Part shown: positions 6,081 to 51,996 of the stretch, in pieces | Layout of the letters: every line of letters begins with the position of its first letter | How positions within the stretch are numbered: the first letter of the stretch is position 1 | Assembly (NCBI GenBank): GCA_964187785.1 | Contig: OZ076409.1 | Span: 42,286,001-42,350,000 of the forward strand | From: Amphiscolops sp. MND2022 | Lineage: Eukaryota | Direction of reading: 5' to 3' | Length of the DNA: 64,000 nucleotides | Notes under the pieces: generated by a model | The model's database searches: none | The model's input: the letters and a program-made list of their open reading frames with translations, nothing else | What the model was told of the DNA's origin: nothing | Translations under genes and position numbers: made by a program

Positions 6081-6109
6081 AACGAAGTAAATTGAAGCTG
6101 CCAAGGTAG

Positions 6110-11672: not shown

Positions 11673-11838
11673 GAAGATAAAGTTGCGAAATAGTTACCAG
11701 TGAAGTACCACAGATTGGCCACTAACATTTTAGCGGCAAATATTCACTAGTATCGCGATACTAATAAATATTTGCCGCTAAAATTTTAGTGGCCAATCTG
11801 TGGTACTTCACTGGTAACTATTTCGCAATTTTATCTTC
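11673..11838. repeat. Near-perfect 166-bp palindrome
   Basis: Symmetric about 11755/11756 (centre TAGTATCG|CGATACTA), with only a few mismatches. Confidence 0.93.
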
Positions 11839-21201: not shown

Positions 21202-21490
21202 CCCTGGTCGAGAAAAAATGCGTTCCTTGCAAGGATCTTGCAAGATCTTTGTAAAAATGCAATTAATTGTACAATCTTGCAAGGAAATTTGTTCCTTGCA
21301 AGATCTTGCAAGGAAATGTTTTCCTTGGAAGATCTTGCAAGGAAATGTTTTCCTTGAAAGATCTTGCAAGGAAATTTTTTTTCTTGCAAGATTCTTGCAA
21401 GATGTCTTGCAGAAAAATGCATAATCTTGCAAGACCTTGAAAGAAAATCTTGCAAGATCCTTGCAAGGAACGCATTTTTTTAAACCAGGG
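21202..21490. mobile_element. 289-bp MITE built from TCTTGCAAG(A/G) motifs
   Basis: TIR CCCTGGT..AAAAAATGCGTTCCTTGCAAGGATCTTGCAAGAT and its reverse complement at the right end; TT flanks on both sides. Confidence 0.88.
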
Positions 21491-23739: not shown

Positions 23740-25993
23740 TGTCACGACCCGCTCCCGGTCGGGATTATAGCTGCTGCAGTGGGATACCTGGTTTCGAAAT
23801 TGGCCGGGGACAAGGCCGAGGTAAACTCTATTAAACTAATTTTAAACTGATCTAAATTCTACTTACAGTACAGCGAAATCGATTGCAGATAATTTTCCAA
23901 ATGCAAAACCTAGCGTAAACGTTACGGAACACTTTTCAGAAATGATTTTTAGCTAAAACTTCCGGTCAATTATTCCCCGCGCGTGATAAGATTTTTCACT
24001 TCCGGTATGATCTTCTGATTTTCTGCCATACTAATCTAAACACTAAAATGAACATTTATAATTGGGATCATTCTTTCCACTGGTCCACACTAAAATGAAA
24101 ACATTAAAATAAAATTCAATTCCGAGATCCCAACGGAATTCATACAATCTAAAATGAAAAGGAACAGACAAATAATAGAGCGGAATTGTTTTCCAGAGAT
24201 GAAGTGGTTGTCAATATTCACTTAAAGCACAGCCAAGTGATTTAGGCAAATATTTACAACGCTATGGCAACGCCAATCTACTGAGCTAATATTAGGAATT
24301 TTGCTTCTACGGACCAATAACGTCACTCTATTGATAGAACTATTCTTAGCTAAGCTGAATAAAAGCAATTTTGGTTGCCCCTAGCAACACCAATTGAAAT
24401 AAGAGAGAGGGAATGAATTCACCTACGCACTCCGCTTTCTCTCCGCTTGATCTGATAGCTGAGCTATGAGCAACCTTAATACGTACGGGACAGCTACGGA
24501 GCGGATTGTAAAATTGTATTCCGCCGTTCAGCTATAACCAATCTTAATACGTACGGAACAACTCGTAAAATGATAGCGGTGAAGTATTAGTTTAAACCGA
24601 AATCAAATAAGGATTTTTCTGAATCGACGCACTTAATGAATTTTTGAAAACAAGTCCACATGTAAAAGGTTGTACTGTAAGAAAGGACTAAAATTATGTT
24701 CGAAGAGTAACGGTGCTATTGCAATAGTTTCTCAATTCACGCGTGCCTTACGTTACATTAAGAGTTTATGTATTCAGTGATTAGTTGTTTATCATTAAAA
24801 TGTTTCACAGAACGTAACGTAAGGTCAACGTCAAAACCCAAACCAAATGCTATTGATGCAGAATGCCTGCCCTGCCTATTCATATGCGATGCCCAATCGA
24901 GTGCAGAATAATTATTGCCTGCAAATACATTTCCTTTCCTATCTATTTGTACTTTGCAATTCGTATGTTACGTTATGGCCACGTATAGGTCAAAGTTAGA
25001 ATTTCTGTTGGTGCAGTTGTTTAGTTTACAAAATTAACCGTATAATCATCATTATGTTTTCTCTTAGCGTCGCTTGTTCCTCAATAATATTCAAATATCC
25101 GTAGTCCGAAATTCCTTTTGCCTCGTTTCAATTTCGTTAATTTTTGCGAGTCATTCTTTTACTTCGAATCTCAATCTCCCAAATTGAAAGTTGACTAATT
25201 GTTCATGCCGGCGTACTTACGCTGATGAATATGCAAGCTAGACGTTTATTTTACCGCGATTTTGAGACTTAAACAGGAAATGGGATTGCCTGAACAAAAA
25301 TGATTTCAACAAATTTACGGAACACTGACGCAACTAGGAATTTTGATGCCTGGTTTTTACGACGCGGGACTGAAATGATATGAATCATTAGCGCTTTTTG
25401 TTGAACAAACCCGATTTTTGTGATACCTAGGAATTTTTAGGTGAGGAACAAATGATGCTGGGAAAGTATAAATATGTAGTACATACATGTAAAGTTAGTT
25501 AGTTGTGTTTTGCAAGTTGTAATAAACTTAAACTGTTTTCGTTGTTTCAACGTTGAACAAAATCATCTTCGAAGAATTCATCTATTGCCGAAGAATCATT
25601 TTTTAACATTAAAAATGACCACTAGAAGCCAGAAGAGGAAAGCTGTAGCTGAATTAGTGTCTGGAGATTTTGAAGCTTCTTTAGCTGAAAATAACTCTGC
25701 TGAAAACCTGATACCCAGTTCTAGTAAAAATCCTAGACTTGAGCTTGAAAACCTGGAGGAAATAAAAACAACTCTGAGAAAAGAAATAATGACTGATCTA
25801 ACAAAGATATTAGCCGAAAACCAAAAGGAAATGCTTAAATTAATAGCACCAGCGAACAAGAAACGCTCAGTTAGTTCGAACATACAAGATTCTGATTCTG
25901 ACCAAGAAAACATCTCCGTAACGAGAACGTCCACTCCAGTCAAGACACAAACTGCGACTAGTTCTAAAACAACACCGGTCAATAGTCGTAACA
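23740..25993 (+). repeat. Element A 5' LTR (2254 bp)
   Basis: Direct repeat of 37733-39989. TATAAAT at 25467-25473 and AATAAA at 25521-25526. Confidence 0.97.
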
Positions 25994-27024
25994 TGGTGAC
26001 AGGAGTCCTCAATGATTCCACTAACCAACCCACCAAAAGACCGAAAACGCAACGTATACTCAACGAACAACAAAAAGACCGTCCTTCCACATCAAAGATC
26101 CTGTTCGCCCCACAACCACAGACATTCCCATCAACCGACCTACTTCCGATGCCGAAAGCACTCACTGCTTCGCTCCCAGTTTTCGATGGTAAGTCCGAAA
26201 AGTTTGAACTTTTTGAGGACCTATTCCGAAACAATATCAAAATGTATCCTCACCTAACCGAGATACAAAAGATCAACTACTTCCATTCACTCCTACGAGG
26301 AAACGCACTACAAGCGTTTTGTAATCTCGATGACACCAAAAAAGACAATCTAGAAGAAGTCATAACGGCATTTAAACGCCGCTTTGGTGATTTCCAATCA
26401 TCCGCTAAAGCGAGATGTGAGTGGGACGCCCTGCATTTTGACCCCACTAAACAGAAACTTCATGAGTTCCTTGACACCCTGCAAAAAACTGCGAAGGAAG
26501 CATTCGGCTCAGAAGCACAAAAATTCATTGATAAAGCAATCTACGCCAAAATGCCAGATCACGTCAAAAAGATCCTCAACAGAGCATATTTGGAAGATAA
26601 ACCCTACAATGACATAGTTTTACATCTTGAGAGGGAAATGAGATTAAACGGACTAGGTGCGCCCGATGAAACAACCCTAGTCCCACTCAACACAGTGGAC
26701 GCTGTAGTGACGGACCATCAAAAAGATCAACAACAACGAGGCCATTGCTTTCACTGTGGCAAATATGGCCACTACAAGGCACAGTGTCGCAAACTTCAAC
26801 GAGAACGTTATAATACAGCCAAAACAAACACAAAAGACCTAGCCCAAAACGAAGTACCCAAACCCAAGTGTGATACATGTGGCAAGATGCACAAAACTGA
26901 GAATTGTTGGAACGGAGCCAACGCAGCAAATGACCCCAGAAAGAAAAAACGAGAATTCACCATCCCAACCAACAAAATCAGTGAACAACCTGTACCCACC
27001 ACGTCCTCTCAGCCAAAAAACTAA
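25615..27024 (+). CDS. gag: Gag, starting within the 5' LTR
   Basis: First ATG at 25615 (the ORF track starts at an upstream TTG). Capsid-like LPVFDGKSEKFELFEDLF; zinc knuckles CFHCGKYGHYKAQC and CDTCGKMHKTENC. Confidence 0.93.
   Translation: MTTRSQKRKAVAELVSGDFEASLAENNSAENLIPSSSKNPRLELENLEEIKTTLRKEIMTDLTKILAENQKEMLKLIAPANKKRSVSSNIQDSDSDQENISVTRTSTPVKTQTATSSKTTPVNSRNMVTGVLNDSTNQPTKRPKTQRILNEQQKDRPSTSKILFAPQPQTFPSTDLLPMPKALTASLPVFDGKSEKFELFEDLFRNNIKMYPHLTEIQKINYFHSLLRGNALQAFCNLDDTKKDNLEEVITAFKRRFGDFQSSAKARCEWDALHFDPTKQKLHEFLDTLQKTAKEAFGSEAQKFIDKAIYAKMPDHVKKILNRAYLEDKPYNDIVLHLEREMRLNGLGAPDETTLVPLNTVDAVVTDHQKDQQQRGHCFHCGKYGHYKAQCRKLQRERYNTAKTNTKDLAQNEVPKPKCDTCGKMHKTENCWNGANAANDPRKKKREFTIPTNKISEQPVPTTSSQPKN
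25994..26006 (+). promoter_or_regulatory. Primer-binding site TGGTGACAGGAGT (probably tRNA-Leu)
   Basis: TGG directly after the LTR-terminal CA. One mismatch from the tRNA-Leu-type PBS TGGTGTCAGGAGT. Same 13-mer at 62076 (element C); TGGTGACAGG at 58079-58070 on the minus strand (element B). Confidence 0.8.
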
Positions 27025-27092
27025 AATCGCCGCGCCTACGATTTGGGGAAAAAGTAGACGCGAGGGCGTACACGATAGAGGACCCCCCAAAC
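27015..27092 (+). promoter_or_regulatory. -1 ribosomal frameshift signal (A_AAA_AAC plus candidate pseudoknot)
   Basis: AAAAAAC at 27015-27021, just before the gag TAA. The pol frame is -1 and open from here to ATG 27168. Stem CGCGCCTAC/GTAGACGCG; loop TTTGGGG can pair with downstream CCCCAAA. Confidence 0.8.
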
Positions 27093-30000
27093 AGGTATGA
27101 AGAAGATTTTTTAACTGAATGTAATGAAGAACCAACTCAAGACTGGCAACGCCGCTGGAACGTAGGCATGATACTCAGGCATAACGCCAGACATCCAGAA
27201 GATCCAACACCACTACCCCAGTGGATAACAGAATCGCCCGATAACTACGCGACACTCAAAAGACCGTTACCGGAATCAAAAACAGACCGAATTTATATAT
27301 ATGACAGAGACTACAGATGTGACCCTTGGGACGAACCAACCATCTATGATACAAATAAACTATCCTTCAAAATACAAGTCTCAAACCCTCAAGCTCAAAC
27401 CACGACGACCACAAACCTACCGTCACCGCCGTCACCAATCCTAAAAAGAACAACACCGTCCCCAACAGCACCCGTCACCGTCACGTCCACACCGATCGAT
27501 GCCGAAAACATCATATGCATTGAAGACAAAACAATATGGTCACGACAAGCAAGAGAACAGCGAGAAAACACCGCTTCGCTCTCGTCATCACCACAAACCG
27601 CGCCAGCCACAGCAATAGCCGCTGAAGACGAAGAAATAACGGAATGTCACCCAACACTACCAGAAGATCTAGATGTCATCAAAGAATTCATCCAGCACGA
27701 CAAGGAAGACGACTACATCCCGTTTATGTCTGCAATTGCCCTCAAGAAGAAAAAGAGAATGCTCTTCTTACCAATCGAATTCAACACTGTCAAAATCGAA
27801 GCCTTAGTCGACTCAGGTGCGTACATTAATGCTATTAGCGAAAGGGATGCTGAAAAACTCCACCAAAATGCGAGTCAATGCATTATTAACAAAGCACCTC
27901 CACCCCCTTTCAAAGTGCAATACGCCAATGCCGAACTAGAACAACCACTTGCCACGTACACTCTACGCTTCAAAATAGGAGATTACACTTTTGAAGAAAC
28001 ATTCATTATCATGAATCAAACGTCATTCCCCATAATTGGATTAGCGTTTCTACGAAAGCATGCCGCAATCCTTGACACGGCACAGGGAACCATCAACTTT
28101 CCCAAGATCCAAATCACGATGGCGCTCACAGACGAAAGACAAAAGTGCAATCCAAAACCCATCACGATAAAGACCGAAGCCAAACACACAATTCCAGCAC
28201 ACTCTACCCGAATCATATACGCAACAATCCCTGTGAGTACCGAACACTCAATAACGGGCACAATACAACCCCTACCACAATTCGATGAATGCGCGAAAGT
28301 AATAGTAGCCCCAGCGATTACAACAGCTAGAGATAAAAAGCTCCCAATTAAAATCGCCAACACCACGGATTTTCCATACACAATAGCCAACGACACCAAA
28401 ATGGCCGAACTGCAAATCCTGAAACCCGAAGAAACGAAGATGATCCGCCCAGTTGACATTGCTGCCCTGAATCTCCTCAATGACCATGACGATGTGGTCA
28501 CGTACATCAACGCACTAATGCAAGTAGAACGGCCAGAAGACAACGAAGAAAAATTCTGGTTCCCGACCCCAGATCACCCAGGCAACGAACAAGAACATTC
28601 GCCCATACAAAAGCGAATCCTGAAAGAACTGCGAGACCTTGCCGAATTAGAAAAACTTGACCCAACCGAAAACGAAGACTCTCGCAACAAATTTCTATCA
28701 ATGTTCAAATGGACAGACTCACTAATTACGGGCAAAGACCGTGAAAAACTTGAGGACACCATTGTTGAATTCAATGACATCTTTGCTCGACACCGACTAG
28801 ATATCGGGATGAATACACAGTTCAAAGTCAGCCTAACACCACAGGACGACAAACCAGTCTACACACAGAGCTTACCCGTCCCGATCAACCTCAAAGAATA
28901 CCTAACAGTGGAACTGGCACTGATGCACAAATACGGCATCATCACGACACTCCCCTTCTCCAAGTACGCCAGTCCTATATTTGCACAACGGAAACCCAAC
29001 GGCAAACTGAGACTACTGGTGGATCTGCGCAAAATCAACGCACTCATAGCAGATGACTACATCAACAACAACCACCCTGTCAGCACCCTCTCAGATGCGG
29101 CACAACACCTAGCAGGGAAAAAACTATTCTGCAAACTTGACTGCTCCCAGGCGTACCACTGCCTTCAAATGGCAGACCAAAGGTCAGTAGAGTTACTTGC
29201 TTTTAATTTTGCTAGTAGGACGTTCGCCTACCGTCGCCTGGCACAAGGACTAAGCAGAGCTCTATCAGCCTTTTCGAGCTTCATGCGTGAGTATCTGGAC
29301 TCAGTCATTAAAGCCGATCAATGTGCACAATACGTAGATGACATTGGCATTGCCGCAAACACAACGGAACAGCTCATAAAAAACATCAGAGCAGTCTTCA
29401 AATGCATCCGGAAAGCAGGACTAAAACTAACCATCGAAAAATGCCATTTTGGAGTAACCCAAATCGAATTTCTTGGACGAACCATCACCCCCGACGGAGT
29501 AGCCCCGCAAGATCAAAAAGTCAAAAATTTCCTCTCCAAAGTACGCTTCCCCAAATCCAAAAAACAAGTTCAAAAATACATTGGCTTTGTTAACTATTAC
29601 CGCAACTACATACCGCGCTTATCAGAAAAACTCATCGGCATGTACGAACTTCTTAAAGCAGACTCCAAGATCAGAATTTCAGAAGAACTTGTCGATAACT
29701 TTAAGGAAATCAACGCCAGTTTAGCGGAAGCTTGTGGACTCGCACTAAGACAGCCTATAGCAGGAAAACAGTACGTTCTAATGACGGACGCAAGCTTTCG
29801 TGCGTCAGGCTACGCCCTCATGATTGAGGAGAACGATGAACGCAAAATACTCTCCAAACGGAAAACCTTCGCACCAGTAGCGTTCGGATCACGAGTTTTT
29901 TCACCTGCACAACTGAAAATGTCTATCTACTGCAAGGAATTCTTAGCAATCTACCATGCATTCCTCGAATACAGCCACATACTATGGGAAGCAACAATTC

Positions 30001-32312
30001 CAACCCTGGTCTTAACAGACAACCGCTCAGTAACGAGATTCTTCCAGACCAAAACGACACCCCCTGCACTCTGGAATGCCTGCGACTATGTATTACAGTT
30101 CAAGTTCCGAATTATGCACGTAGCAGGCTCCCAGAACACAGCAGCAGATTTTCTTTCAAGACTTGAACTTACACCGAAAGAAAAGGTCCAACTTAAACTA
30201 CGAGACGACATACTAACGTCCCCAATTGAGGTCAATCTACAATCATCAGATGTAGCTGACGAAGAACAACTTTTCTTCCTACCTGATGACGAAGATGAAT
30301 CTGAACAAGAAATCTTTGCCCGAAAAGCACTCAGCAAACAACGCGCCCTAGACGAACATGAAAGAGAACTATCAACAAAAGTAACCGAAGTCATCAAGAT
30401 ACCACTCAACTCCGCAGTCTACTCCTTCGGCGCAATCAAAGAAAATGCACGGATCAGAAACGAACAAGATGCAGACCCTCTCCTCAAAGCACTGAAGCAA
30501 CGGATCTCACATGAAGAATATGACAAACACCTCCTCAAAACTGAACCACGAGGACGAAACCTATTACGCCACGAAGAAAGAATCATAATGAAGGATGGAG
30601 TTCTGATGCGGAAATACTACGGAGAAGACGGATCAGTCACCCATAATCAAATCATAATTCCGAAACACCTAGTCCCAGAACTCTTGGCCACTCTACATGG
30701 GAAAACAAATAAACATCCAGGAATCGCAAAAATGATACAAGAATGCAGAGCGAAATACTACTTCCCGGGTCTTGCACGTAAAATCAGAGCTTGGGTAACC
30801 AGCTGTCAAGACTGCATTGCCAATAAAAGAATCGACACAAGACAAATACGCCCCAAAATGCTAAGCAACACTGAATTCACAATGGGACCAGAAGACTGCC
30901 TAGAAGTAGACATTCTTCCAAACCTACCTTCCTCAAATGGATACCAACACATCATCACGATGATGGACGTTTTTTCACGTTACCTTTTCGCTTACCCGAC
31001 ACAGGACATGACAGCCAAAACAGTCGCACGATGCATAATAGACGTCATGACACGACACTGCTACCTGCCGACCGTCATTCTAACAGATAAAGGATCACAA
31101 TTCAGATCAGAAGTAGTCAATCAAATAACACAAACATTGGATATACGGATAAGCCACGCATCGACGAAACACGCTCAAACAATTGGCATCCTAGAAAGGA
31201 CTCATGCCTCTTTGAAAACCTCCCTAAAGATATCAACGGGGGAACGACGCTCTATGTGGCATAAATATGTCCAGATCGCAGTCATGAACTACAATACGAG
31301 CTATCATGAAAGCCTAGGTTGCGAACCTACAACAGTATTTCACGGACGCATTCCGTACAACATCCTAGACATAAAACTCGGATTGAAACCTGAATGGAAA
31401 AAAGATAACAACGAAGAACTGACGGATCAACTACAGAAGCAAATATCCGAAATACACCATGCCGCCAAAGAAAATCTAATGCAGTCCTACTTAAAGTACA
31501 AACAGTACTATGACAAGAAAGCAACAGCAACACCGCTCAAAGTCAATGACTACTGTTACGTCCTCAATCCGAAGGCAGACAACCAGTCGATGAAATTCGC
31601 TTTTAAAGATTGCATTTGGACTGGACCCTACATAGTAGTCAAAGTACTCTCGAACAACAACTACATCGTACGCCGCACGGGAACTAGATATACCCAAACC
31701 CTCCATAGAATTCGCCTAAGGCTATATGCGCCCAATCAGCGAGTACCTGACGTAACAGTCAGAAGGGAAGATTATCTTCCAGACCCAGAGGTTAAAACAA
31801 CCCACAATGATTGGTACGCGCAAGCTTGGGAAACCGAATTCGGAGAAGTTCTGTTCGGAAACAATACCGAAAACGCCGCAGAAGAAGCCACAGTTACAGA
31901 AATTGCAGACACAACAGGACGCAACGAAACTACAACGGGAAATGATGTGGTTAAAACAACCACCAATGAAAACACAGTGAAAAATGACGTGGTTCAAACA
32001 ACCACACACGAAGCTACAACGGAAAGCGACGTGGCTCAAACAGCCACAAATGAAAATACTGTAGCAGATAAAACACCTTCCGACAATATAACGTCATTTG
32101 ATCTAGATGTCAGCGATAACCCATATATTTTGACCCCACCACCGATACACAGCCCTCCCAAAACACCCGAATTACCGCCTATAGTCGTTGGATACAATCC
32201 TAGAAAAGTGGGACGATACAATTTGAGACCTAATCCGAGACCCAACGTGGACCCTGACTTCAGAATGCTAAACTCAACTACAGCGGACGATTTACGTCAA
32301 ACTCAAAACTAA
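27021..32312 (+). CDS. pol: Pol polyprotein (protease, RT, RNase H, integrase); first ATG 27168, likely made as Gag-Pol
   Basis: ALVDSGA protease; YVDD RT; TDAS RNase H; H-H-CxxC zinc finger, D-D-E core (LEVDIL, TDKGSQF, ILERTH) and GPY integrase motifs; Thr-rich tail. 1714 aa without stops. Confidence 0.97.
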   Translation, partial: LKSPRLRFGEKVDARAYTIEDPPNRYEEDFLTECNEEPTQDWQRRWNVGMILRHNARHPEDPTPLPQWITESPDNYATLKRPLPESKTDRIYIYDRDYRCDPWDEPTIYDTNKLSFKIQVSNPQAQTTTTTNLPSPPSPILKRTTPSPTAPVTVTSTPIDAENIICIEDKTIWSRQAREQRENTASLSSSPQTAPATAIAAEDEEITECHPTLPEDLDVIKEFIQHDKEDDYIPFMSAIALKKKKRMLFLPIEFNTVKIEALVDSGAYINAISERDAEKLHQNASQCIINKAPPPPFKVQYANAELEQPLATYTLRFKIGDYTFEETFIIMNQTSFPIIGLAFLRKHAAILDTAQGTINFPKIQITMALTDERQKCNPKPITIKTEAKHTIPAHSTRIIYATIPVSTEHSITGTIQPLPQFDECAKVIVAPAITTARDKKLPIKIANTTDFPYTIANDTKMAELQILKPEETKMIRPVDIAALNLLNDHDDVVTYINALMQVERPEDNEEKFWFPTPDHPGNEQEHSPIQKRILKELRDLAELEKLDPTENEDSRNKFLSMFKWTDSLITGKDREKLEDTIVEFNDIFARHRLDIGMNTQFKVSLTPQDDKPVYTQSLPVPINLKEYLTVELALMHKYGIITTLPFSKYASPIFAQRKPNGKLRLLVDLRKINALIADDYINNNHPVSTLSDAAQHLAGKKLFCKLDCSQAYHCLQMADQRSVELLAFNFASRTFAYRRLAQGLSRALSAFSSFMREYLDSVIKADQCAQYVDDIGIAANTTEQLIKNIRAVFKCIRKAGLKLTIEKCHFGVTQIEFLGRTITPDGVAPQDQKVKNFLSKVRFPKSKKQVQKYIGFVNYYRNYIPRLSEKLIGMYELLKADSKIRISEELVDNFKEINASLAEACGLALRQPIAGKQYVLMTDASFRASGYALMIEENDERKILSKRKTFAPVAFGSRVFSPAQLKMSIYCKEFLAIYHAFLEYSHILWEATIPTLVLTDNRSVTRFFQTKTTPPALWNACDYVLQFKFRIMHVAGSQNTAADFLSRLELTPKEKVQLKLRDDILTSPIEVNLQSSDVADEEQLFFLPDDEDESEQEIFARKALSKQRALDEHERELSTKVTEVIKIPLNSAVYSFGAIKENARIRNEQDADPLLKALKQRISHEEYDKHLLKTEPRGRNLLRHEERIIMKDGVLMRKYYGEDGSVTHNQIIIPKHLVPELLATLHGKTNKHPGIAKMIQECRAKYYFPGLARKIRAWVTSCQDCIANKRIDTRQIRPKMLSNTEFTMGPEDCLEVDILPNLPSSNGYQHIITMMDVFSRYLFAYPTQDMTAKTVARCIIDVMTRHCYLPTVILTDKGSQFRSEVVNQITQTLDIRISHASTKHAQTIGILERTHASLKTSLKISTGERRSMWHKYVQIAVMNYNTSYHESLGCEPTTVFHGRIPYNILDIKLGLKPEWKKDNNEELTDQLQKQISEIHHAAKENLMQSYLKYKQYYDKKATATPLKVNDYCYVLNPKADNQSMKFAFKDCIWTGPYIVVKVLSNNNYIVRRTGTRYTQTLHRIRLRLYAPNQRVPDVTVRREDYLPDPEVKTTHNDWYAQAWETEFGEVLFGNNTENAAEEATVTEIADTTGRNETTTGNDVVKTTTNENTVKNDVVQTTTHEATTESDVAQTATNENTVADKTPSDNITSFDLDVSDNPYILTPPPIHSPPKTPELPPIVVGYNPRKVGRYNLRPNPRPNVDPDFRMLNSTTADDLRQTQN

Positions 32313-32458
32313 ATGAAAACAATGAGCAGGCTAAACCGAACCGGAGTAGCTACGTAAAATTATCATCTAAACTAAAAAGAACAGCAACAAAGCCAAAATT
32401 ATAGTTCCTTCAGAATCATCAAAACATAATAAAAGTCTACAAATCATCACAACACAAA

Positions 32459-35400
32459 TCACTTGACATGATGATGTATGGAAGGATCAATGTCTTTCTT
32501 CGACTTCTTCTTCGGAGTCGTTTTACTACCACCAGCTTGCACGTTAGACTTCTTCGTCTTCCCGACCTGCTTCCCATCAGTACTCTTTTCACCAACTTTA
32601 TTTCCACTACTTTTCCCTTTTTCACTAACAGAACTGGAACTACTCTGCACAACGGAACTACTACGAGACCCCTGCTCTGCCCGAGATAAACGATTGACTC
32701 GATTACACTCCGTATAATGCTCATCACTGGATTGACGTCGCTTTGCCAAAAATTCTTTATACAGCTTGCAGAAAGATGCAATAAACGAGTCCACACCGGC
32801 ATCGCACAAATCTTTCCATACGTTAAAATCAGAGCCAATATAAAATAGCCCAGCTTCAGAAACAGCATCTCGCATTAGGCCCATGGATGACTCAGTAAAT
32901 AACGACTGCGGAGAATAACCGTCGCTCAAAACATACGATTGAACAACTCTGCAACACAGAAGAACACTTCCTTCAGCCTGTTTACAACTCGACAGATCAA
33001 GAGTAAACGGAGGACTAACACGGTTGGGCTCACCGACAAGCAGACAACACAACTTGAAGACACGAAGTACATGTCGTCGTGACTGGAACCCAAAATCATC
33101 CAGCAAGTAGCGGCGAATGTCCGTGATAGAACTGGCAGAGCGCTCCAATCGACTATGCTGCCTGCGTTTCTCGATCACGTACGCACTATACTCATCCACA
33201 GCAGCATTGCATTCTTCTCGAGATAAAGCGCCACACCTCACAAGACCATCACACAGCTCAGAAAACAAATCAAACGCACACTTATCGTCACCTTCTAACA
33301 TCAGTTCAGGGCAGAAACTGCACAGACCCTTCGAAACAATGGAACGAGTGCTGGCACTCTCCACTAACAGAGTGACGAGGCGATCGATAAATTCTCTGCA
33401 GCGACCACGAAACTTTGGCATCTCGCTTGCCTTCGACGACAAAAGAGACTTCCCATAATCACAGTGAGCCAAGAACTCATCCATAGGTGCAACAGGGAAA
33501 CTTGCCGCCTTTTCCACGTCCATATATGCATCCCAATCGTGAATAGCTGGAAGACTTGACAACTGGCGCGTCTTCATCAACAAACAGTATACGAAATTGC
33601 ATAATTCACCATAGCCATGGAATGCATAATCGCTGCGGCTCTGTCTCAACTTCGGCAAATGAATATGGAAAGTATCCAGCATCAATTGCAACAGCCCAAA
33701 ACGATACGGCACCAGTCCGTCCGAGATCACAGTTGAATCCATACCTCTCAACTAAACAACAACACAAAATAACTAAGTAGACGGAAAACAACAGATGACC
33801 AACAAGACGACCGTGAAGAACCCCCCGAAAAAAAAAAGAGAAAGAAAAAAAAAATCATGCAACAAACTCACACTGTCGGCCTGATCTTTCACATGAGGCA
33901 ATCCGGTACACCGAATGAACAGGCGAATTGAAGGCCACAGGTCCACCAAATCAGTCAGAACCTCACGAAGATCCTGGAAGGCAACGGAACCTTGACGAAT
34001 GGCCTTGCGCAACAACACCTTGCCATCCGTCCAGTCCTCGTACACAGCGCTCTTTAGCCGTAAAATGACATAGTCCACCAAACTTGTCACCTCTACCATC
34101 CCGAAAACATCCTGATGTGCCTGACGCACACACTGTAGGAACACCTCCTCGGAAAACTGTTGATGCATAACAAGTCGTTTCCCATCAGTACGATTGTCCT
34201 CTATCACTCGAAGAAGCACCGGACTAGCACCGCTGACACAAAAGGGAAGTCGCGCATTTTGCACACTATGGACGAACTGTGCCAAAGGAACCAACTCGGA
34301 TTTGGGCATAGGCTGGTCCAAAACTTCCTGACCAATGCAGATTTTCCGCAGAGCATTGTCCAACCAGCACACAACAAAGCATCGTTCCACATCCGCGTCT
34401 TTCTCATAGAACAATGCATATTCATTGCGCGTCCCGACTGCACTGAGAACCAAACGCAACACCCGAGGAGCAAGGCCACGACACAGCAAGGACTGAAACA
34501 ATATACAAATACCATGACTACAAAACCACACTACTACTGCCCCCCCCCCTCCCGAAAAAGAAAAGGAAAAAGGAAAAAAGGAGAAAAAAAAAGAACAAAA
34601 AAAAAGAAAAAAAAGGAAAAAGAGGGAAAACGACACAGACAAAGCTCATGAACCCAGAGACCACAAAAATATGTAATACCCCTACTTACCACCGTCTCAG
34701 CACGACTCCAATTCAGCTGATATTCGGGCGCCCTCTCACCCAAAGAAGCTCGGAAACACGCCCATAAACGTCGCAGCAACGTGAAATCGCCGCCACTCCG
34801 GAGCCACTCACAGACGGCCGAGATCATGGTCATAAATGGGACCTTTGAATCAACTTGGGCATGTTTGGGCACCAAATCTTCTGGAAAGGGAAACCCCTCT
34901 GCCAAGTCCACAAAAGGTTGAGCTTTGTATTCCGCAATCTGGGCGGCAGTCAGTTCCATAGGCTCCAACCATCTATTGTATACGGGCAACCCTGAATGGA
35001 CTCTGTAGCGCACGTCACGAAACCAGTGCCCATCAGACGCGAAGTGACGTTTAAACTCGCCAGATCCTTGTGCCTTCATCCGCACATCTCGATTGCACAC
35101 TCGACAAAAGAACGACGTAGGCTCCCCGCACTTAGAGCCACTGACAAAGTTGGGATATGCGGGATGCAAAGATAACATGCGTCTCTTCAAATGTTTGCGA
35201 TTCCCATAAGTTCGCACTCGCCGCTGGCAGCGATCTTCAATCTTCTTCGACAACTTCGTGAAACCTGCAAACGATAACACAACCATCTATAAATATGACA
35301 CACGATATTGCGACCCCAAAACCCCAACCACACTTAAACAACCCCCTATCAACTATGAGATACTAACGGACCTGTCTCGATACTTTGTACTGCCCGAGTC

Positions 35401-36367
35401 TCCACCTCAGAAATCAGATGACGACCAAATTGCGCCAAGTCAATCGGACTCAACGGAGTATTGCCGGGGAAAGCTAACACCTCCTCCTCCGCTTCTGGAT
35501 CACCTATAACAAACATCAAAACAATTAGGTGGACACACTATAGAATCCCGAACCACTCTGAGAAACCCAACCAGAAGACTAAAGTGAACAACTCTATACA
35601 AGCATTCTACAAAACAAAGAGAAGAGAAAAGAAAAGGATGGGGGAAAAAGAGAAACAACTAACTGCTCCATCCCTCTGCCATAAGCTCCTGTAAGCTAGG
35701 AGAATGACCACCTTGACGTTGCGGTGGCGGAGTCGAAAACTTCACAGCCCGCTCACGAGAACAACTTGGCTCCATGACATCGACAGTTGCAGTGCCCTCA
35801 TCATTTCTCCCTCCTCCACTTTCTTTTGGGGAGGCCGGAACGGCCTCGCCTCCACGAGGCTCACTAACAACAGCAGCATCCTGAAGCTGAGAACCAAATC
35901 CGGTGGCATCTCGCGAAATTCCAGTACTGACGTCGGGAGCCTCTAACAACGAAGAGGAACCAGGCTGGAAAGAAGCAGTATGTCCAGAACCAGCAAGAAC
36001 AGTCGTCAGCATAGCGTTGACAGAGGCAACCGGAAATGCCTCGGTAATGGAAGGGAGTCCCACGGGAACCAAAGAATGGCTAGCCTCCGTATGGGAGCTA
36101 AGCCCGGGCAGCGCAATGGGTTGAGTTACTGAAAATCAAGATCTGGTTCAGACGCGTCAGAGTTACGGGTAAGACTATAAAAGGCTGATCACCAAAAACA
36201 ATAGTCCTATTGCCCAGGAAGTCAGAAAGATTTTACCAACCCGAAGCAGAACGAGAAATATCGATGTCAGAAGGAACAACATCATCATCGGTGAAATTGA
36301 ATGTTGTCTCGTTTCCACTGACGAACCCTGCACCAGTACCAGCAGGAGGACCAGAATCACCATCCAT
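32459..36367 (-). CDS. Antisense spliced accessory gene, ~1070 aa, BED-like zinc-finger protein. Exons 36367-36241, 36128-35664, 35503-35372, 35264-34690, 34492-33872, 33751-32459
   Basis: Five GT-AG introns (36240-36129, 35663-35504, 35371-35265, 34689-34493, 33871-33752), each ending in a pyrimidine-rich tract and YAG. Phases 1,1,1,0,0 join into one 3213-nt reading frame. Motif FCRVC-x16-H-x5-H. The 3' introns have textbook donors; the start and 5' exons are less certain. Confidence 0.8.
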
Positions 36368-36429
36368 CCAGAATAACAACTCAAGAAATCTAAAACAAAA
36401 GGAAAAATCAAGAAAAACTATGCAAAGCG

Positions 36430-36957
36430 AACGTAAAAGACAAGAAAAGGAACAATAGCATCATTTCTACAGGAAAGAAAACCATCTATGTTCCAATTCC
36501 CATTTTTCCTTTTAAAAGCCTATTATGGCATTGACGGAACAAAACGTTTCCAAAAGTTGGATAAAAATCCACCAAGAAATGCTAAAGAAGAATTAAGAAA
36601 ATCATCAGGAGATCACGGAACATAGGCGTAATACACCAATGAAACTGTGTGACGTCATTACGCCATTAACCGAAAAGAGGACGGCTACTAGAATTAGAAG
36701 TTTTCATCAATTATTTCGACCAATCACAACGCAGTAAGAAAGAACTCGTTTCTTTCATTCCGAGACGCACCGAAACGAAAGCGGAAAAACCGACCAATAG
36801 AATTTCGTTAAAAATTACGAAGGAAAAGAATTTGAAACGTTCATTTGTCGTTCAATTTTCATAAAAGCTTGACCAGCATCTTCTGCCAAACTAATTCTCT
36901 GTGAACTAGTCAAAGAAGACATAAGCCAGAATCCTGCAAAATTTAATCCCTGCAATC
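36430..36957. promoter_or_regulatory. Candidate bidirectional internal promoter
   Basis: Lies between two divergent ORFs; TGACGTCA (CRE) at 36650-36657 and CCAAT boxes at 36636, 36720 and 36794. Confidence 0.5.
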
Positions 36958-37827
36958 ATGAACGGATACTCGTTGGTGATAGATATATCTTCCGACGAAG
37001 ATAATAACCGTTGCAGCACGCCGTTGAAGGCATTACCCCTCAACACGATCAGCACTCTTAGTGATTCGTCCACGGAAGCATTCCGTGGGAGTGAAGCTAG
37101 AACAGATTCAACATCCGAGTCTGACTGTTCTCCGAAAAAGCGCGGCCCTACCCCCAGCAAAAAGAAAAAGCTAGGGAGAGTAAGTTTTAATCTACCGCCA
37201 GCAGTAAACCCCGACTCAGATACCGACTTCTACGAAGAACCGGACACGCCACCGAGCCAGCCCCTAACAAGACCAACACCAGTCCTAAAAGAAAAAGCAA
37301 ACATTCCCCAATTAGGAAATGAAAGGGCTCCAAACACAGTCAAGCTGAATGACTTGAATGAGCCTTCGCTGGCAGATTTGGACGCACTACACGGCTTAGA
37401 TATAGAAGATCGGCAGTTTTTCGCAGCAGTTGGCCGTGGACGCACTCACTACGGCGCAAAAGAGAATGCCCCCCCTCCGACTAAAAGAGAGCAATGCATT
37501 TGTGCGTTAAGCGACCCTACTAAGCCGCCGGAAATATGCCCTATCGATACGATGCGAAGAGAACAGGAGCTTCGAGAAATGGAAGAAGAAGAAAGGTTCA
37601 TAACAAAAATGACTGCAGGAAGAGGACGTAGTCGCGGCACGCGGATTCTCAACGGCCGTCCCCCTGTCATCATCAGGAAAGAAATTCCCCATTGCCGAGC
37701 TATACCCTTGTCTCTTGCTTCAAGAGGGGCCCTGTCACGACCCGCTCCCGGTCGGGATTATAGCTGCTGCAGTGGGATACCTGGTTTCGAAATTGGCCGG
37801 GGACAAGGCCGAGGTAAACTCTATTAA
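36958..37827 (+). CDS. Sense accessory ORF3 (289 aa, mostly low-complexity), ending inside the 3' LTR
   Basis: ATG-initiated intact ORF. VIDISSDED (SIM-like), KKRGPTPSKKKK (NLS-like), repeated GRG. No signal peptide or transmembrane stretch, so not env-like. Confidence 0.7.
   Translation: MNGYSLVIDISSDEDNNRCSTPLKALPLNTISTLSDSSTEAFRGSEARTDSTSESDCSPKKRGPTPSKKKKLGRVSFNLPPAVNPDSDTDFYEEPDTPPSQPLTRPTPVLKEKANIPQLGNERAPNTVKLNDLNEPSLADLDALHGLDIEDRQFFAAVGRGRTHYGAKENAPPPTKREQCICALSDPTKPPEICPIDTMRREQELREMEEEERFITKMTAGRGRSRGTRILNGRPPVIIRKEIPHCRAIPLSLASRGALSRPAPGRDYSCCSGIPGFEIGRGQGRGKLY
37722..37732 (+). other. Polypurine tract of element A
   Basis: AAGAGGGG(CCC) immediately before the 3' LTR TG. Confidence 0.7.
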
Positions 37828-39989
37828 ACTAATTTTAAACTGATCTAAATTCTACTTACAGTACAGCGAAATCGATTGCAGATAATTTTCCAAATGCAAA
37901 ACCTAGCGTAAACGTTACGGAACACTTTTCAGAAATGATTTTTAGCTAAAACTTCCGGTCAATTATTCCCCGCGCGTGATAAGATTTTTCACTTCCGGTA
38001 TGATCTTCTGATTTTCTGCCATACTAATCTAAACACTAAAATGAACATTTATAATTGGGATCATTCTTTCCACTGGTCCACACTAAAATGAAAACATTAA
38101 AATAAAATTCAATTCCGAGATCCCAACGGAATTCATACAATCTAAAATGAAAAGGAACAGACAAATAATAGAGCGGAATTGTTTTCCAGAGATGAAGTGG
38201 TTGTCAATATTCACTTAAAGCACAGCCAAGTGATTTAGGCAAATATTTACAACGCTATGGCAACGCCAATCTACTGAGCTAATATTAGGAATTTTGCTTC
38301 TACGGACCAATAACGTCACTCTATTGATAGAACTATTCTTAGCTAAGCTGAATAAAAGCAATTTTGGTTGCCCCTAGCAACACCAATTGAAATAAGAGAG
38401 AGGGAATGAATTCACCTACGCACTCCGCTTTCTCTCCGCTTGATCTGATAGCTGAGCTATGAGCAACCTTAATACGTACGGGACAGCTACGGAGCGGATT
38501 GTAAAATTGTATTCCGCCGTTCAGCTATAACCAATCTTAATACGTACGGAACAACTCGTAAAATGATAGCGGTGAAGTATTAGTTTAAACCGAAATCAAA
38601 TAAGGATTTTTCTGAATCGACGCACTTAATGAATTTTTGAAAACAAGTCCACATCATGTAAAAGGTTGTACTGTAAGAAAGGACTAAAATTATGTTCGAA
38701 GAGTAACGGTGCTATTGCAATAGTTTCTCAATTCACGCGTGCCTTACGTTACATTAAGAGTTTATGTATTCAGTGATTAGTTGTTTATCATTAAAATGTT
38801 TCACAGAACGTAACGTAAGGTCAACGTCAAAACCCAAACCAAATGCTATTGATGCAGAATGCCTGCCCTGCCTATTCATATGCGATGCCCAATCGAGTGC
38901 AGAATAATTATTGCCTGCAAATACATTTCCTTTCCTATCTATTTGTACTTTGCAATTCGTATGTTACGTTATGGCCACGTATAGGTCAAAGTTAGAATTT
39001 CTGTTGGTGCAGTTGTTTAGTTTACAAAATTAACCGTATAATCATCATTATGTTTTCTCTTAGCGTCGCTTGTTCCTCAATAATATTCAAATATCCGTAG
39101 TCCGAAATTCCTTTTGCCTCGTTTCAATTTCGTTAATTTTTGCGAGTCATTCTTTTACTTCGAATCTCAATCTCCCAAATTGAAAGTTGACTAATTGTTC
39201 ATGCCGGCGTACTTACGCTGATGAATATGCAAGCTAGACTTTTATTTTACCGCGATTTTGAGACTTAAACAGGAAATGGGATTGCCTGAACAAAAATGAT
39301 TTCAACAAATTTACGGAACACTGACGCAACTAGGAATTTTGATGCCTGGTTTTTACGACGCGGGACTGAAATGATATGAATCATTAGCGCTTTTTGTTGA
39401 ACAAACCCGATTTTTGTGATACCTAGGAATTTTTAGGTGAGGAACAAATGATGCTGGGAAAGTATAAATATGTAGTACATACATGTAAAGTTAGTTAGTT
39501 GTGTTTTGCAAGTTGTAATAAACTTAAACTGTTTTCGTTGTTTCAACGTTGAACAAAATCATCTTCGAAGAATTCATCTATTGCCGAAGAATCATTTTTT
39601 AACATTAAAAATGACCACTAGAAGCCAGAAGAGGAAAGCTGTAGCTGAATTAGTGTCTGGAGATTTTGAAGCTTCTTTAGCTGAAAATAACTCTGCTGAA
39701 AACCTGATACCCAGTTCTAGTAAAAATCCTAGACTTGAGCTTGAAAACCTGGAGGAAATAAAAACAACTCTGAGAAAAGAAATAATGACTGATCTAACAA
39801 AGATATTAGCCGAAAACCAAAAGGAAATGCTTAAATTAATAGCACCAGCGAACAAGAAACGCTCAGTTAGTTCGAACATACAAGATTCTGATTCTGACCA
39901 AGAAAACATCTCCGTAACGAGAACGTCCACTCCAGTCAAGACACAAACTGCGACTAGTTCTAAAACAACACCGGTCAATAGTCGTAACA
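37733..39989 (+). repeat. Element A 3' LTR (2257 bp)
   Basis: Differences from the 5' LTR that I could see: a 3-bp CAT indel near 38655 and G/T at 25244/39240. Confidence 0.97.
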
Positions 39990-41392: not shown

Positions 41393-43861
41393 CCCATGCT
41401 CTTGCATTATGCTTCAGCATTAAGTACCGAAAACTGATGGTTCTTTTTGATTAATTTACGAATCTGTGCCTGTAGTACAACAGCTTACGAGCTGAATGTG
41501 GATGTTGCCGAATAATTGTTATTGACGTGATTATTGTAGGTTGTTGTGATTTTATGGCTACTTTGGCCATTTCAGACGTTATTCCCAGGTCACCCTGAAA
41601 GGCCAAATTTACACATTTCTTCTTGAGTTTCAACCAGATGGTCTGCGGCGTTTGTTGTTGGGACGATGATGGTAAAATTGGATGAACTGGATTATTCATC
41701 CGTCCTCAATCGCGTGGGCATTATTCGCGATCTTCGTTGTTTCCAAAAGGAGGCAAAAGGCAACGTCATCAGCAAACCTAGCCCCCACTAATTGAGTCAA
41801 CCAAGAACTCACAGGGCAAAGGACATTTCTTCTAATCCTGGATTCGTATACCCAACTGTGTAATGTATTTGTCGTACCCATCATCATCACTTCGGTTAGA
41901 ATCCACTGAATTCTCCCTTTCAGTAATTTGTTCGGTTACTACTCATTGCTACTAATCTGGTCTTTCTGAGCATCCTGAGCCGCTTGGCTAACCTTTTCTG
42001 GATGCAGTCCATTTGACCGAAAGTCCCTCTGAGGACGTACTTTACTAAAATTACTCGGATGCGGTCCATGTGTCCGAAGGTCCAAATTTGTATTTCTAGC
42101 TGAAGTTTGGCTTCCTACAGCATTTTTGATGCTCGGTATCACCTTTTCTTCAATTGCAGAGTTAATTACGTCTAATATGTGTGAATTTAAGTCTGATTTC
42201 ATTTCCTCAAGTTTTCTAGACATTTGTGAAGAAATTTCTGAATTGATTGCTCTACTAGTTTTTTCGGTCAAATCACTGGATTGAATGTTTAAGTAAGACC
42301 GGAATTAACTATCATTCTGATTCAATCTTTTTTCATGTCTTGTTGACCTTAACTCCATTTCGTTTTCACAATTTCTCTCTTGCACTTCACAGTTATCTCT
42401 TTAATAACTTCCAAGAATAACATCAAAATTTTCAATATCTGACATCACGTCAGATAGTCTAGTACGCTTTTCCTTTGCTTTCTGCTTTATAATTGAAGGC
42501 GTATTCGAAAGAAAAGTTTGATTTCAACAGTGAATTGTCAGAAATAACAAATTGAACAGTATCGTGTTTTGAGTGTGGGTACGGTTAATAATCAATGATC
42601 ATTTTAGCAACGAACTCCGCGTATATATAATTTAAACAGCATGACGCGCATAAATTTGTGCAGCAGGTAGCTGAATTCAGGATGAGATCAGTCTAAATTT
42701 TGCTTTAGCCCCGATATTAGGTCAAACGTTCTAAATATAGATCAGGTTACTAGACATTACGTCATTTTGGGTGAGAAGATATAAATAGCATCAAACTAGT
42801 AACGTATTAACTTGCATAATACTAATTCTAGGTTAAATGCCGCATTTCATGTAACGATAGCATCAATATTTAGCAAAACACTAATTCTGACCAAGCGTCA
42901 GCGTGACTGCAGTGCATGGTTCTAACTGCATTCTGATTGGCTGAGAATATGTCTGGACTACGCGTCATCCTGACTGCAGTAGTGAGCAGGTTGAACGCAG
43001 GTTATCCTGTTTTCTTGGTTGTATTACAAGGTATTACAGCACCTTTCAGCTTGTTTTACAACACAATTACGAAACAATTGCACTGAACATACTTAACGCA
43101 ACGTGTATCTAATAGAGTAACTGAGCAAAACTGTACAAAATAGTATCGAAATCAGTACTTGGGACAATTGAAGTTTAAGGTTGCTTTCAAGTTGACCTTC
43201 GGTCAATATTACAAAATTTTGCAAGCTGCTTGAAGTCTTAATTGTGTCAATTTTAACGGTACAAATACGTATCAGTTTGTTGTTTTAATTCTTCGGAGGG
43301 GCTAAACTGTTTCATTTGGAAAAGACTACTGGTCCGGGGTTACTCTGATTGTCGTCTGGCATGATTTTGTAGAATATACCATCACAGGCGGCAGCCTGCG
43401 ACACTCCCCAATGGACTAAAATAAAGACATTACGATACATGTCCCGCAAAAGTAGAAAGTGATCACTTGGTGTAAATAGTATTTTGGGTAAAATAGTCAA
43501 TTACTGTAAATTGGTCAAAGACTGTAGTAATCCACTCGTGTAGTGGTTCAGCACAGTGTAATATGAACGCGGTGAATTCCAGTCAAAATGCGTAGTTAGT
43601 AAATAGTGTAAAACAGTCAAAATTTACAAGCTAATTTAGTAAGGTGTAATTCAGTCAAAGTTTGATTAAATTTCACTTTTAATGAGGTATTCATTTACTA
43701 AACTACCAAAAAGTGTAAAGTAGTCAAAGTTTGACTAGTTTACGGCAATCTAATAATTGCTTCAAACATAAATTTACACTGGATAGTTGCTTGGAGTTTA
43801 ATTACTTTGACTAAATTACGCCTTAACTTTGACTGAATTACGCGATTAAACAATTGACGCA

Positions 43862-44061
43862 NNNNNNNNNNNNNNNNNNNNNNNNNNNNNNNNNNNNNNN
43901 NNNNNNNNNNNNNNNNNNNNNNNNNNNNNNNNNNNNNNNNNNNNNNNNNNNNNNNNNNNNNNNNNNNNNNNNNNNNNNNNNNNNNNNNNNNNNNNNNNNN
44001 NNNNNNNNNNNNNNNNNNNNNNNNNNNNNNNNNNNNNNNNNNNNNNNNNNNNNNNNNNNNN
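43862..44061. other. Assembly gap (200 N)
   Basis: Run of N. Confidence 1.
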
Positions 44062-44526
44062 TGCTTATCTAACACAGCAGATACTAGTTTTGAGTCCCGG
44101 GAAATTTCTGAGTTGAATCCTTGTTGAATTTCTGTTAACTTGGGTTGTTTCTTGATTTTCCCACATTATGTGGGTCCTTGAAGATGAAATATTTGGGTAT
44201 TTCTGGAAGTTTCAGTTTTTCTTGGGAATGAAGTTTTTCCATCTGCATTTTAGACACTTCACTTCAAAGAGTTTCTCGTCAATTTGCTCACTGTCAAACA
44301 AACAAAACATGACTACTTGTTGTCAAAACTTCCAATATTTGTTACTCAAATATTTTGTTATTCAAATATATTCCAAATCTGGGGAACACTTACAAAACAT
44401 GCTTCAACATCAAACCATTAAATCATATTAAATATCAAATCTTCTCCAATTTAACCTAATTTGTCAGAAAAAATTAACCCAAATTCTCTTATGTTCGTTT
44501 TACTGCTTTGTTTGAATTAATTGCTC

Positions 44527-44670
44527 ACTGATCATGACAGTAAGCACAATTTTCAACGGTAACTTATGATTTGAACTAATTTCTTACTGATCATGACAGT
44601 AAGCAAAATTTTCAACGGTAACTTATGATTTGAACTAATTTCTTACTGATCATGACAGTAAGCAATATTT
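44527..44670. repeat. 59-bp tandem repeat, ~2.4 copies
   Basis: ACTGATCATGACAGTAAGCA at 44527, 44586 and 44645. Confidence 0.9.
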
Positions 44671-45222
44671 TTAAACATAAACTTTGAGATTTGAATTCTC
44701 GTGAATAAATTCGAATCACTTAGATCACCAATACAAATCATCATCCAATATTGATGTTTTTTTACATTAAATCCAACATCAATCTTGGGAAGTGAAATTA
44801 ATGCATTTCAATCTTCACAACAAAGTTTATAAAACCATCTTTAATATAGGTAAACCAGTGACTCACAAAACGCGTAAAATAGTCAAGTTCATTACTGTGC
44901 TACACTATTTGACTAATTTTCACCACGTAATTAGTAAGACGGCGTAATTCAGTCAAAATGCGTAGTGGAAAATCGCGTAATTTAGTCAAAGTGCGTAGTA
45001 CTGCATCAGTGCGTAGTTCAGTCAATTAGTGTAAATTTATGGACCGGAAAATAGTGTAAACCAGTCAATTAGTGAATTTTAGTCATTCAGTGTAACTAAT
45101 TATCACTTGGTGTAATAGGAGAAAAGTGTAAAACAGTCAACATCATAATAACTCACTGTGATTGGTTATTAATGCAAGTCGCAAGATCTGGGAACTTGCT
45201 TGCGGGGATATGTATCGTAATG

Positions 45223-45900
45223 GAACCCACCTTCATTCCGGCTCGAAAACCTCGTCTTCTGCCATTAGTTGGTCATAGGTTTCTCCTCTGACATGTGATC
45301 CTTCAAGATAGCTCATAGTGATTTCTTCTCTAATATCGGGGAAGTACTTGCCACAAATCACACATCCTGTGTGGTCCGCGACGTTGGACTACCCGCATGA
45401 TGCGCTCGCTGTGATTGCTAGGCTAGTGATATGCGGGTTATGTACCCATTGATTGTCATTTTGTTCAAGTTGTTGTTGATTTTCGAACTAATAAAACGGC
45501 ATTTGATCAATTAGCGGGGTTGAAGCTGGCAAATTGACCACTGGGTTGAGTAGGCCGCACCATGGGTTTGAATGGTTTCCAATTGCTTGATTGCATTAGG
45601 TAGGGGGTCGATGGCTTCCAGTCAAATCCGTCGTCATGGCTTTTCCAGCTGTAAGTTGTGGGGGGAACGGAGGGTTTTCGTAGTAACAGGACAATACTTG
45701 TATTTTGTCGTCCTCGATTTCTCTGTCCAGTAGATCTTGCACTGACATGACAGAATCCACATCCAGATTCTCTTGTGAAGACGCGCATGGTAAGCTGACA
45801 TGCGATATGGGATGTTCTTCAATGTCAAATTGAAGGGACATATTTTCGTTGTAGCGATTAAGAAAGAGTTTCTTTGCTTTTTTGTTCGTCACAAGTTGGG
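45223..45900 (-). pseudogene. Positional equivalent of ORF3 in element B (frameshifted; tail continues at 43427-43312 into the 3' LTR)
   Basis: Coding-like fragments 45892-45596 and 45788-45507 in element-sense orientation. Across the TIR insertion a frame reads FILVHWG-VSQAAACDG... through the PPT into the LTR. No clear protein similarity to element A ORF3. Confidence 0.5.
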
Positions 45901-51805: not shown

Positions 51806-51996
51806 TTTCAGTAAGATGAAAATTTGTTAGTTGCTAGTGGATCTAAATTTTAAATGTACAACTGTTTCTTTAGTATGTAAAGTTGTTTCTTTAGTTTTTT
51901 GTTGCCGGTATTTATTGTCATTTGTATTCAGTCGAGTTAGGTCTGTCTCAATGCACAATCAAGTTAAAGAACAAGGGACAGAACTCATGTATCTGG

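Follow-up and report, generated by a model that had tools for sequence, protein, structure and literature searches.

What lies at the locus?

The window that we analysed, by which we mean the whole stretch of 64,000 nucleotides (Amphiscolops sp. MND2022, contig OZ076409.1, positions 42,286,001 to 42,350,000), holds a full-length retrotransposon, element A, and it is an accessory reading frame of this element, ORF3, that concerns us here. Element A is laid out as follows.

23740..39989, plus strand: element A, a full-length Ty3/Gypsy LTR retrotransposon of 16.25 kb with a 5-bp target-site duplication, CTACT
23740..25993, plus strand: 5' LTR, 2254 bp, with the first ~126 gag codons within its 3' end
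25994..26011, plus strand: primer binding site, with TGG at its start; gag reads across it
25615..27024, plus strand: gag, with DUF1759 above cut-off, a weak Retrotrans_gag match and Cys/His knuckle-like motifs
26985..32312, plus strand: pol, in the order PR-RT-RH-IN and in frame -1 with respect to gag
36136..36957, no strand: A-rich spacer separating two head-to-head genes, recognised by layout and composition
36958..37827, plus strand: ORF3 (P0001), a stop-free 289-aa frame for a predicted disordered accessory protein
37722..37729, plus strand: polypurine tract (PPT), within ORF3; the LTR begins three bases later
37733..39989, plus strand: 3' LTR, 2257 bp, opening with the final 31 ORF3 codons

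Element A is placed among Ty3/Gypsy elements by its TG...CA LTRs, target-site duplication, primer binding site, PPT and PR-RT-RH-IN order with an RVT_1 match, and the closest solved relatives of its reverse transcriptase are those of foamy virus and Ty3. Its LTRs are one substitution and three gap columns apart (2254 versus 2257 bp), and the element is very young. Coding sequence lies over both LTR ends, as a first, sequence-only reading of this DNA had proposed: the gag ATG (25615) sits inside the 5' LTR and its frame reads over the primer binding site at 25994, while ORF3 runs into the 3' LTR. We take the A-rich spacer to be a candidate internal promoter, possibly bidirectional, or a splice-acceptor region. 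The Gag frames of these Gypsy elements at 25615-27024 and 61616-62872 both match DUF1759, a family known mainly from BEL/Pao elements.

The rest of the window contains the following features.

1775-2557, plus strand: DUF5641 frame, probably the integrase end of another LTR element
5293-6487 and 18554-19545: tandem arrays, whose unit sizes are about 175-185 bp, 16-42 bp and 494 bp
8902-9130, 11673-11838 and 21237-21382: probably MITE-like sequences, seen as long, hairpin-like inverted repeats, one perfect over 112 nt and the others of 83 nt at 95% and 67 nt at 75%
21739-23629, minus strand: solo LTR of ~1.9 kb, lying 110 bp from element A and carrying an ATCAT duplication
41870-59575, minus strand: element B, one old element with the AATAC duplication at both ends and LTRs 85% identical
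59911-64000, plus strand: element C, with an LTR of 2165 bp in which gag starts; it continues beyond the window

Element B contains a 200-base N gap (43862-44061), a decayed pol, 31-70% identical to that of element A depending on the segment, and a decayed antisense gene at 47348-51508 on the plus strand. Homology to the Gag N-terminus is found near the 3' end of the solo LTR (22084-21818) and also in the LTR of element C, whose primer binding site has its first 10 bases in common with those of A and B.

Is ORF3 a real gene?

We think that ORF3 is very probably a real protein-coding gene. The intact 289-aa frame in the env position that the sequence-only reading described is indeed free of stops from 36958 to 37827 on the plus strand, and none of 2000 shuffles of 36136-37850 produced a frame as long (the longest was 236). 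The 3' LTR start at 37733 falls in codon 259, so that the frame passes through the PPT and has its last 31 codons in U3, just as had been noted.

The same reading drew attention to an open phase at the starts of other LTRs, and here we agree with the counts and disagree with the meaning. There are indeed 30 open codons at 43403 in element B, 35 at 23629 in the solo LTR and 7 at 59911 in element C, with a further 39 at 59575 in B, but of 9000 arbitrarily chosen LTR start points 15% are followed by at least 30 open codons, a run of that kind is seen in 19-27% of LTR-start shuffles, and the peptides read from the B, C and solo-LTR starts gave no match to the ORF3 profile. The comparison thus carries no weight, and a shared ORF3 in B and the solo LTR was rejected as the explanation of a pattern that chance gives in about 12-27% of cases.

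Conservation in relatives, whose lack had been named in advance as grounds for abandoning the idea, proved extensive: a search with ORF3 that weighed 1225 candidates brought up 84 clusters of homologues, with identities of 31-99%. An exhaustive phmmer search gave 102 matches and a profile search, for which the best 8000 candidates were scored, gave 131, of which 120 were listed, and several clusters hold 47-82 members each. The matches listed with a source are all ENA proteins, with no named or Pfam-annotated relative among them, and no related loci were found in metagenome or viral contigs. Profile coverage showed 53 of the 124 clusters examined to be full length, and these yielded 25 representatives with pairwise identities of 32-74%; in a tree of ORF3 representatives the clade of our query is supported 100/100. 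All of these homologues are gene-caller predictions, so the set favours open frames, and related rows are statistically dependent.

Majority identity along the protein is 0.76-0.83 at residues 1-40 versus 0.39-0.40 in the linkers at 81-90 and 111-130; the short motifs described below are the conservation peaks, and large in-frame indels sit between them, with whole segments gained or lost. It could be argued that such a frame has no protein function and is kept open by cis constraints from the PPT, U3 and promoter together with recent amplification, and both the coincidence of the C-terminal block with the PPT and LTR edge and the bias of the database towards open frames speak for this. We consider it very improbable, however, given that full-length frames with the same start and end are open in 25 subfamilies as far apart as 32-74% identity, and that conservation is centred on motifs 750 bp upstream of the PPT, with the indels in frame.

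What kind of protein does it encode?

The 19-residue hydropathy of ORF3 never exceeds 0.61 and its GRAVY is -0.79, which bears out the earlier claim that it has no hydrophobic segment; with no membrane segment and no Pfam match, an env identity was rejected, and an Env-gp36 match at E 0.12 in one of 37 family members is at chance level. Disorder-promoting residues make up 64% of the protein, and AlphaFold2, run on a 37-row alignment, gave a pLDDT of 53, a pTM of 0.18 and one confident helix (residues 195-219). No Pfam family was matched at E 0.01, searches of PDB sequences and the Atlas returned no usable match, and neither Pfam nor AlphaFold2 revealed a folded catalytic domain of the type found in rotifer elements (GDSL, DEDDy). 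In our view ORF3 belongs to this Gypsy lineage as a true accessory gene, whose product is a predicted disordered string of docking motifs and neither an enzyme nor an envelope, and the reading of it as a non-env, motif-driven regulatory protein is well supported by the predicted disorder and the lack of a membrane segment.

Which motifs are conserved?

The motifs and the one helix of ORF3 are listed here, with counts over the 25 full-length representatives.

36973..37002, plus strand: SIM-like motif (residues 6-15), a hydrophobic core plus Ser/acidic tract; strict form in 23/25
37015..37029, plus strand: S-T-P-hydrophobic-K (residues 20-24), a Polo-box-type docking motif; S-T-P-hydrophobic-basic in 21/25
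37129..37170, plus strand: SPKK and TPSK CDK-type sites and a basic, NLS-like run, chiefly in the query's clade
37177..37188, plus strand: RVSF (residues 74-77), a putative PP1-docking RVxF motif within KKKKLGRVSF; 15/25 overall
37228..37242, plus strand: FYEEP (residues 91-95); [YF][YF]EE[PA] in 18/25
37540..37614, plus strand: the sole confident helix (residues 195-219), missing from the second clade
37618..37824, plus strand: C-terminal conserved block; GRG 24, EIPHC 21, RGALS 24, Cys 21 and G-x-G-x-G 21 of 25

Shuffle rates for the SIM, S-T-P, [YF][YF]EE[PA], GRG, EIPHC, RGALS and G-x-G-x-G patterns, and for a [ND]DLxE pattern that is also present in 21/25, are 0-9%, which excludes composition alone as their cause; the regular expressions and names for Polo-box, CDK, D-box, KEN, NLS and RVxF motifs are, unless a paper is cited, those that we take to be in general use. 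With fragments included, a previous set of 30 representatives had the SIM in 22, RVxF in 20 and GRG in 26. The sequence-only reading mentions neither RVxF nor S-T-P, nor the antisense spliced gene described below.

The motifs which that reading did quote are where it placed them (LVIDISSDED at residue 6, KKRGPTPSKKKK at 60 and GRG at 159, 221, 280 and 284), and as a conserved set they hold in part. The SIM-like motif, whose loss would have told against the idea, is retained in 23 of the 25 divergent representatives and GRG in 24, whereas the four-basic NLS run is not a general feature, being found in just 10/25, mostly in the query's clade (K[KR]x[KR] reaches 16/25 versus 22% in shuffles). The SIM of ORF3 has the V/I/L-rich four-residue core, the acidic/Ser tract, the predicted disordered setting and the conservation that one would look for, and judged by these it probably binds SUMO; SIM definition and phosphorylation by CK2 are treated in parts of PMC12751080.

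RVxF is largely a matter of clade: [RK]V[ST]F is found in 11/12 of the query's clade, amid variable neighbours, and outside it in 4/13 representatives or 15/39 clusters. In all 15 carriers it lies 59-74 residues downstream of the SIM, and it is this position, not its presence, that counts as evidence, since the loose pattern also matches 17/59 control proteins of the antisense family; none of these 59 controls has the strict SIM or the S-T-P pattern. The basic run occurs mostly in the RVxF clade and so may be there for docking PP1 as much as for import into the nucleus. RVxF motifs are reportedly under the control of Aurora B. Viral proteins are known to bring in PP1 through RVxF (PMC10807198, in extract).

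Outside the query's clade a D-box-like pattern (8/25) is common in place of RVxF; the canonical RxxL D-box was rejected (0/30 representatives), and KEN matches (10/25) were not counted as a motif, their positions being variable. One way to read these cell-cycle motifs, and the chief alternative to the role that we propose below, is that ORF3 helps integration: it would sit in the particle or pre-integration complex, where Polo-box, CDK and PP1 docking together with the SIM would time nuclear entry or tether the complex to mitotic or SUMO-rich chromatin. S-T-P in 21/25, with RV[S/T]F in one clade and the D-box-like pattern in the other, would suit this, and according to extracts of PMC5006980 the conserved S-T-P of foamy virus Gag binds PLKs for efficient integration. 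We nevertheless hold it to be rather unlikely, as the Gag of element A has an STPVK of its own (residue 106), so that ORF3 need not supply one, and the canonical D-box is missing throughout.

The C-terminal block invites another thought. Retrotransposon genomic RNA has to exit the nucleus unspliced, and a C-terminus with GRG in 24/25 and a terminal G-x-G-x-G in 21/25 might bind element RNA, for Rev-like export, packaging or as a condensate scaffold. Conservation is strongest in the acidic N-terminal motifs, however, and RG repeats are few, and we rate such RNA handling as improbable. RGALS spans the PPT and the LTR edge, and these can explain its conservation.

What faces ORF3 across the spacer?

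Beyond the A-rich spacer, head-to-head with ORF3, we predict a gene of five exons on the minus strand.

35664..36012, minus strand: exon 1 (predicted), with its ATG at 36012; the frame is open from 36135
35372..35503, minus strand: exon 2 (predicted), donor site uncertain; 18 site combinations are in frame
34690..35264, minus strand: exon 3 (predicted), with a weakly matching C2H2/BED-like zinc finger
33872..34492, minus strand: exon 4 (predicted), an open frame bounded by GT-AG introns with T-rich interiors
32459..33751, minus strand: exon 5 (predicted), a 430-aa open frame with an all-helical model and a weak likeness to the C-terminal half of hAT transposases

The predicted product of ~989 aa (from the ATG at 36012 to 32459) would occupy 3.7 kb between pol and the spacer, with introns at 35663-35504, 35371-35265, 34689-34493 and 33871-33752, all GT-AG and T-rich. 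Keeping the frame is weak evidence on its own (37 of 84 alternative intron-3 pairs do so, as do the 18 combinations for introns 1-2), and the model therefore rests on consensus-like sites and composition. We infer that the introns persist in an element with an RNA stage by virtue of their opposite orientation, in which they would not be spliced from the genome.

Exon 5 has 59 homologue clusters at 30-97% identity, and in exon 3 a CxxC...H...H arrangement is visible, with weak C2H2 matches (E 0.23 in A, E 0.003 in B). A hAT origin is only hinted at: Atlas features of exon 5 resemble Dimer_Tnp_hAT clusters (0.90, 140/256 in common, with low recognition), and its model places Hermes transposase at rank 3 (Z 5.7, rmsd 6.6, 166 residues aligned), tied with unrelated helical proteins. 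No Pfam match to the hAT dimerisation domain was found in 54 members of the antisense family, nor any Foldseek or PDB-profile match. As for a nested autonomous hAT insertion, the best candidate pair of inverted repeats flanking the gene, out of 43 short ones, has 23 nt at 74%.

Element B has a decayed, co-linear homologue of the antisense gene at 50772-51508 (E 0.04, 1.7e-4 and 2e-3). A profile search of B detected no ORF3 homologue (best match within 47300-44100, E 2.8), and with the antisense gene present and ORF3 undetected in this decayed copy, ORF3 does not appear common to every relative. At the position of ORF3 in B, 45200-46100 on the minus strand, there is a decayed coding-like stretch with the word YYENP and a CxxC (profile E 2.8), which perhaps represents another accessory gene or a very distant one.

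Family-wide linkage of ORF3 and the antisense gene is not significant (Mantel rho 0.07, p 0.25, 26 pairs): 22 source-contig sizes are common among 201 and 186, and both the Spearman and the Mantel test were non-significant. Contigs of equal size, 6857 bp, carry P0289, which is a distant ORF3, and P0328, which is an antisense homologue. In one further protein, P0110, the antisense zinc-finger exon (62% over 104 aa) is fused to the C-terminus of a second-clade ORF3 at the shared word LMEP, a chimera that suggests that one copy has a junction left by an inversion or a deletion.

What might ORF3 do?

Our tentative answer, a possible one to which we give somewhat less than even weight, is that ORF3 works in the nucleus as a docking scaffold for SUMO and PP1, under phospho-regulation, and shields the transcription of its own element. 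The protein would be made from a subgenomic RNA that ends in the 3' LTR and is either spliced or initiated within the spacer at 36136-36957. It would then go into the nucleus, where the N-terminal SIM, probably reinforced by Ser phosphorylation, would anchor it to SUMOylated silencing proteins on the chromatin of the element and let it compete there with host SUMO readers. In the query's clade RV[S/T]F would recruit PP1, and the S-T-P and CDK-type sites would switch the protein in step with the cell cycle. The most probable outcome, be it anti-silencing or trans-activation, would be that the element's own copies stay transcribed, and the antisense zinc-finger protein is a candidate supplier of sequence specificity. 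SUMO is required in piRNA-guided silencing in Drosophila (10.1101/533091). The 'counter-defence' role named by the sequence-only reading belongs at this same conditional level.

A SIM could equally recruit silencing, and the motifs of ORF3 suit recruitment as well as competition. On that footing the element would restrain itself, its SIM drawing host SUMO-dependent repression onto its own copies and so keeping their number down, perhaps with antisense RNA of the partner gene playing a part as well; for plant elements, PMC7264820 proposes that antisense transcripts, being complementary to the genomic RNA, act as regulators. We find this quite unlikely all the same, in that the lineage carrying ORF3 is expanding, with near-identical LTRs and many subfamilies that have dozens of members.

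A bolder form of our docking-scaffold proposal, and a doubtful one, would treat the head-to-head genes as a single cassette, an animal protein-based anti-silencing system in which the intron-containing antisense gene, taken over from a hAT DNA transposase, would provide sequence-specific binding to the element and ORF3 would act as a cell-cycle-gated SUMO decoy with a phosphatase-recruiting arm, blocking SUMO-dependent heterochromatin at cognate copies.

Why does it matter?

Explicit cases of transposon counter-defence are very few according to a 2019 review, and the examples described in the part of it at hand are from plants (PMC6719617). The motifs of ORF3 may help the element to dodge or time host silencing, and a protein of an animal LTR retrotransposon with deeply conserved SIM, Polo-box-type and PP1 motifs would offer a direct and cheap way to find out whether elements attack silencing at its SUMO step. 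The many diverged subfamilies, in which an RVxF/basic module is exchanged for a D-box-like one, furnish a natural series on the arms race, and the antisense gene would illustrate how a gene with introns can survive in an element that has an RNA stage.

How does it compare with known systems?

We found no description of the ORF3 protein family among the papers listed by our literature searches, which covered few of the subscription journals. In layout, ORF3 recalls HIV nef and MMTV sag, retroviral genes that overlap the PPT and U3: it too is an accessory frame that continues across the PPT into U3, although it has just 31 codons in U3.

Among LTR retrotransposons, those of bdelloid rotifers have non-env ORF3s encoding a GDSL esterase and a DEDDy exonuclease (PMC5408684, in extract). 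Like these, our ORF3 is a sense frame that takes the place of env in a retrovirus-like element of an invertebrate and is not an envelope; the rotifer proteins are folded enzymes with known domains, however, whereas this one is predicted to be disordered, has no Pfam match and overlaps the PPT and U3. The plant elements Retand, Grande and RIRE2 carry additional antisense ORFs (TRP28, GENE23), gene23 of Grande being driven by its own promoter, as set out in portions of PMC7264820 and PMC11963269. They share with element A a long region between pol and the 3' LTR with a conserved antisense gene, and their products are proposed to be nuclear and regulatory; the antisense gene here differs in its four predicted introns, its zinc finger, the lack of a Pfam match to Transposase_28 (TRP28) and the sense accessory gene that it faces. 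An accessory gene on the opposite strand has also been described in a brown-algal DNA transposon, which is not an LTR element (PMC12477816, in extract).

For function, the VANC proteins of Arabidopsis VANDAL DNA transposons, which are anti-silencing factors (extracts of PMC6719617 and PMC12859917), resemble what we propose in being element-encoded accessory proteins that protect cognate copies. They differ in that VANC belongs to a plant DNA transposon, acts on DNA methylation and has a demonstrated function, whereas the function of ORF3 is put forward from its motifs, and no sequence link was seen. Viral proteins that recruit PP1 or bind PLKs, such as HSV gamma34.5, ASFV DP71L, HIV Tat and the S-T-P of foamy virus Gag (parts of PMC10807198 and PMC5006980), offer a parallel in short linear motif mimicry, through RVxF and S-T-P, without homology; ORF3 differs from them in packing several motifs into one stand-alone, predicted disordered protein of a non-env retrotransposon. 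By sequence ORF3 is a member of none of the families compared, and by analogy we propose that it may act in the manner of a viral motif-mimicry accessory protein. With non-env ORF3s, antisense accessory ORFs and VANDAL anti-silencing already known, the ORF3 family is a variant among the accessory genes of retrotransposons.
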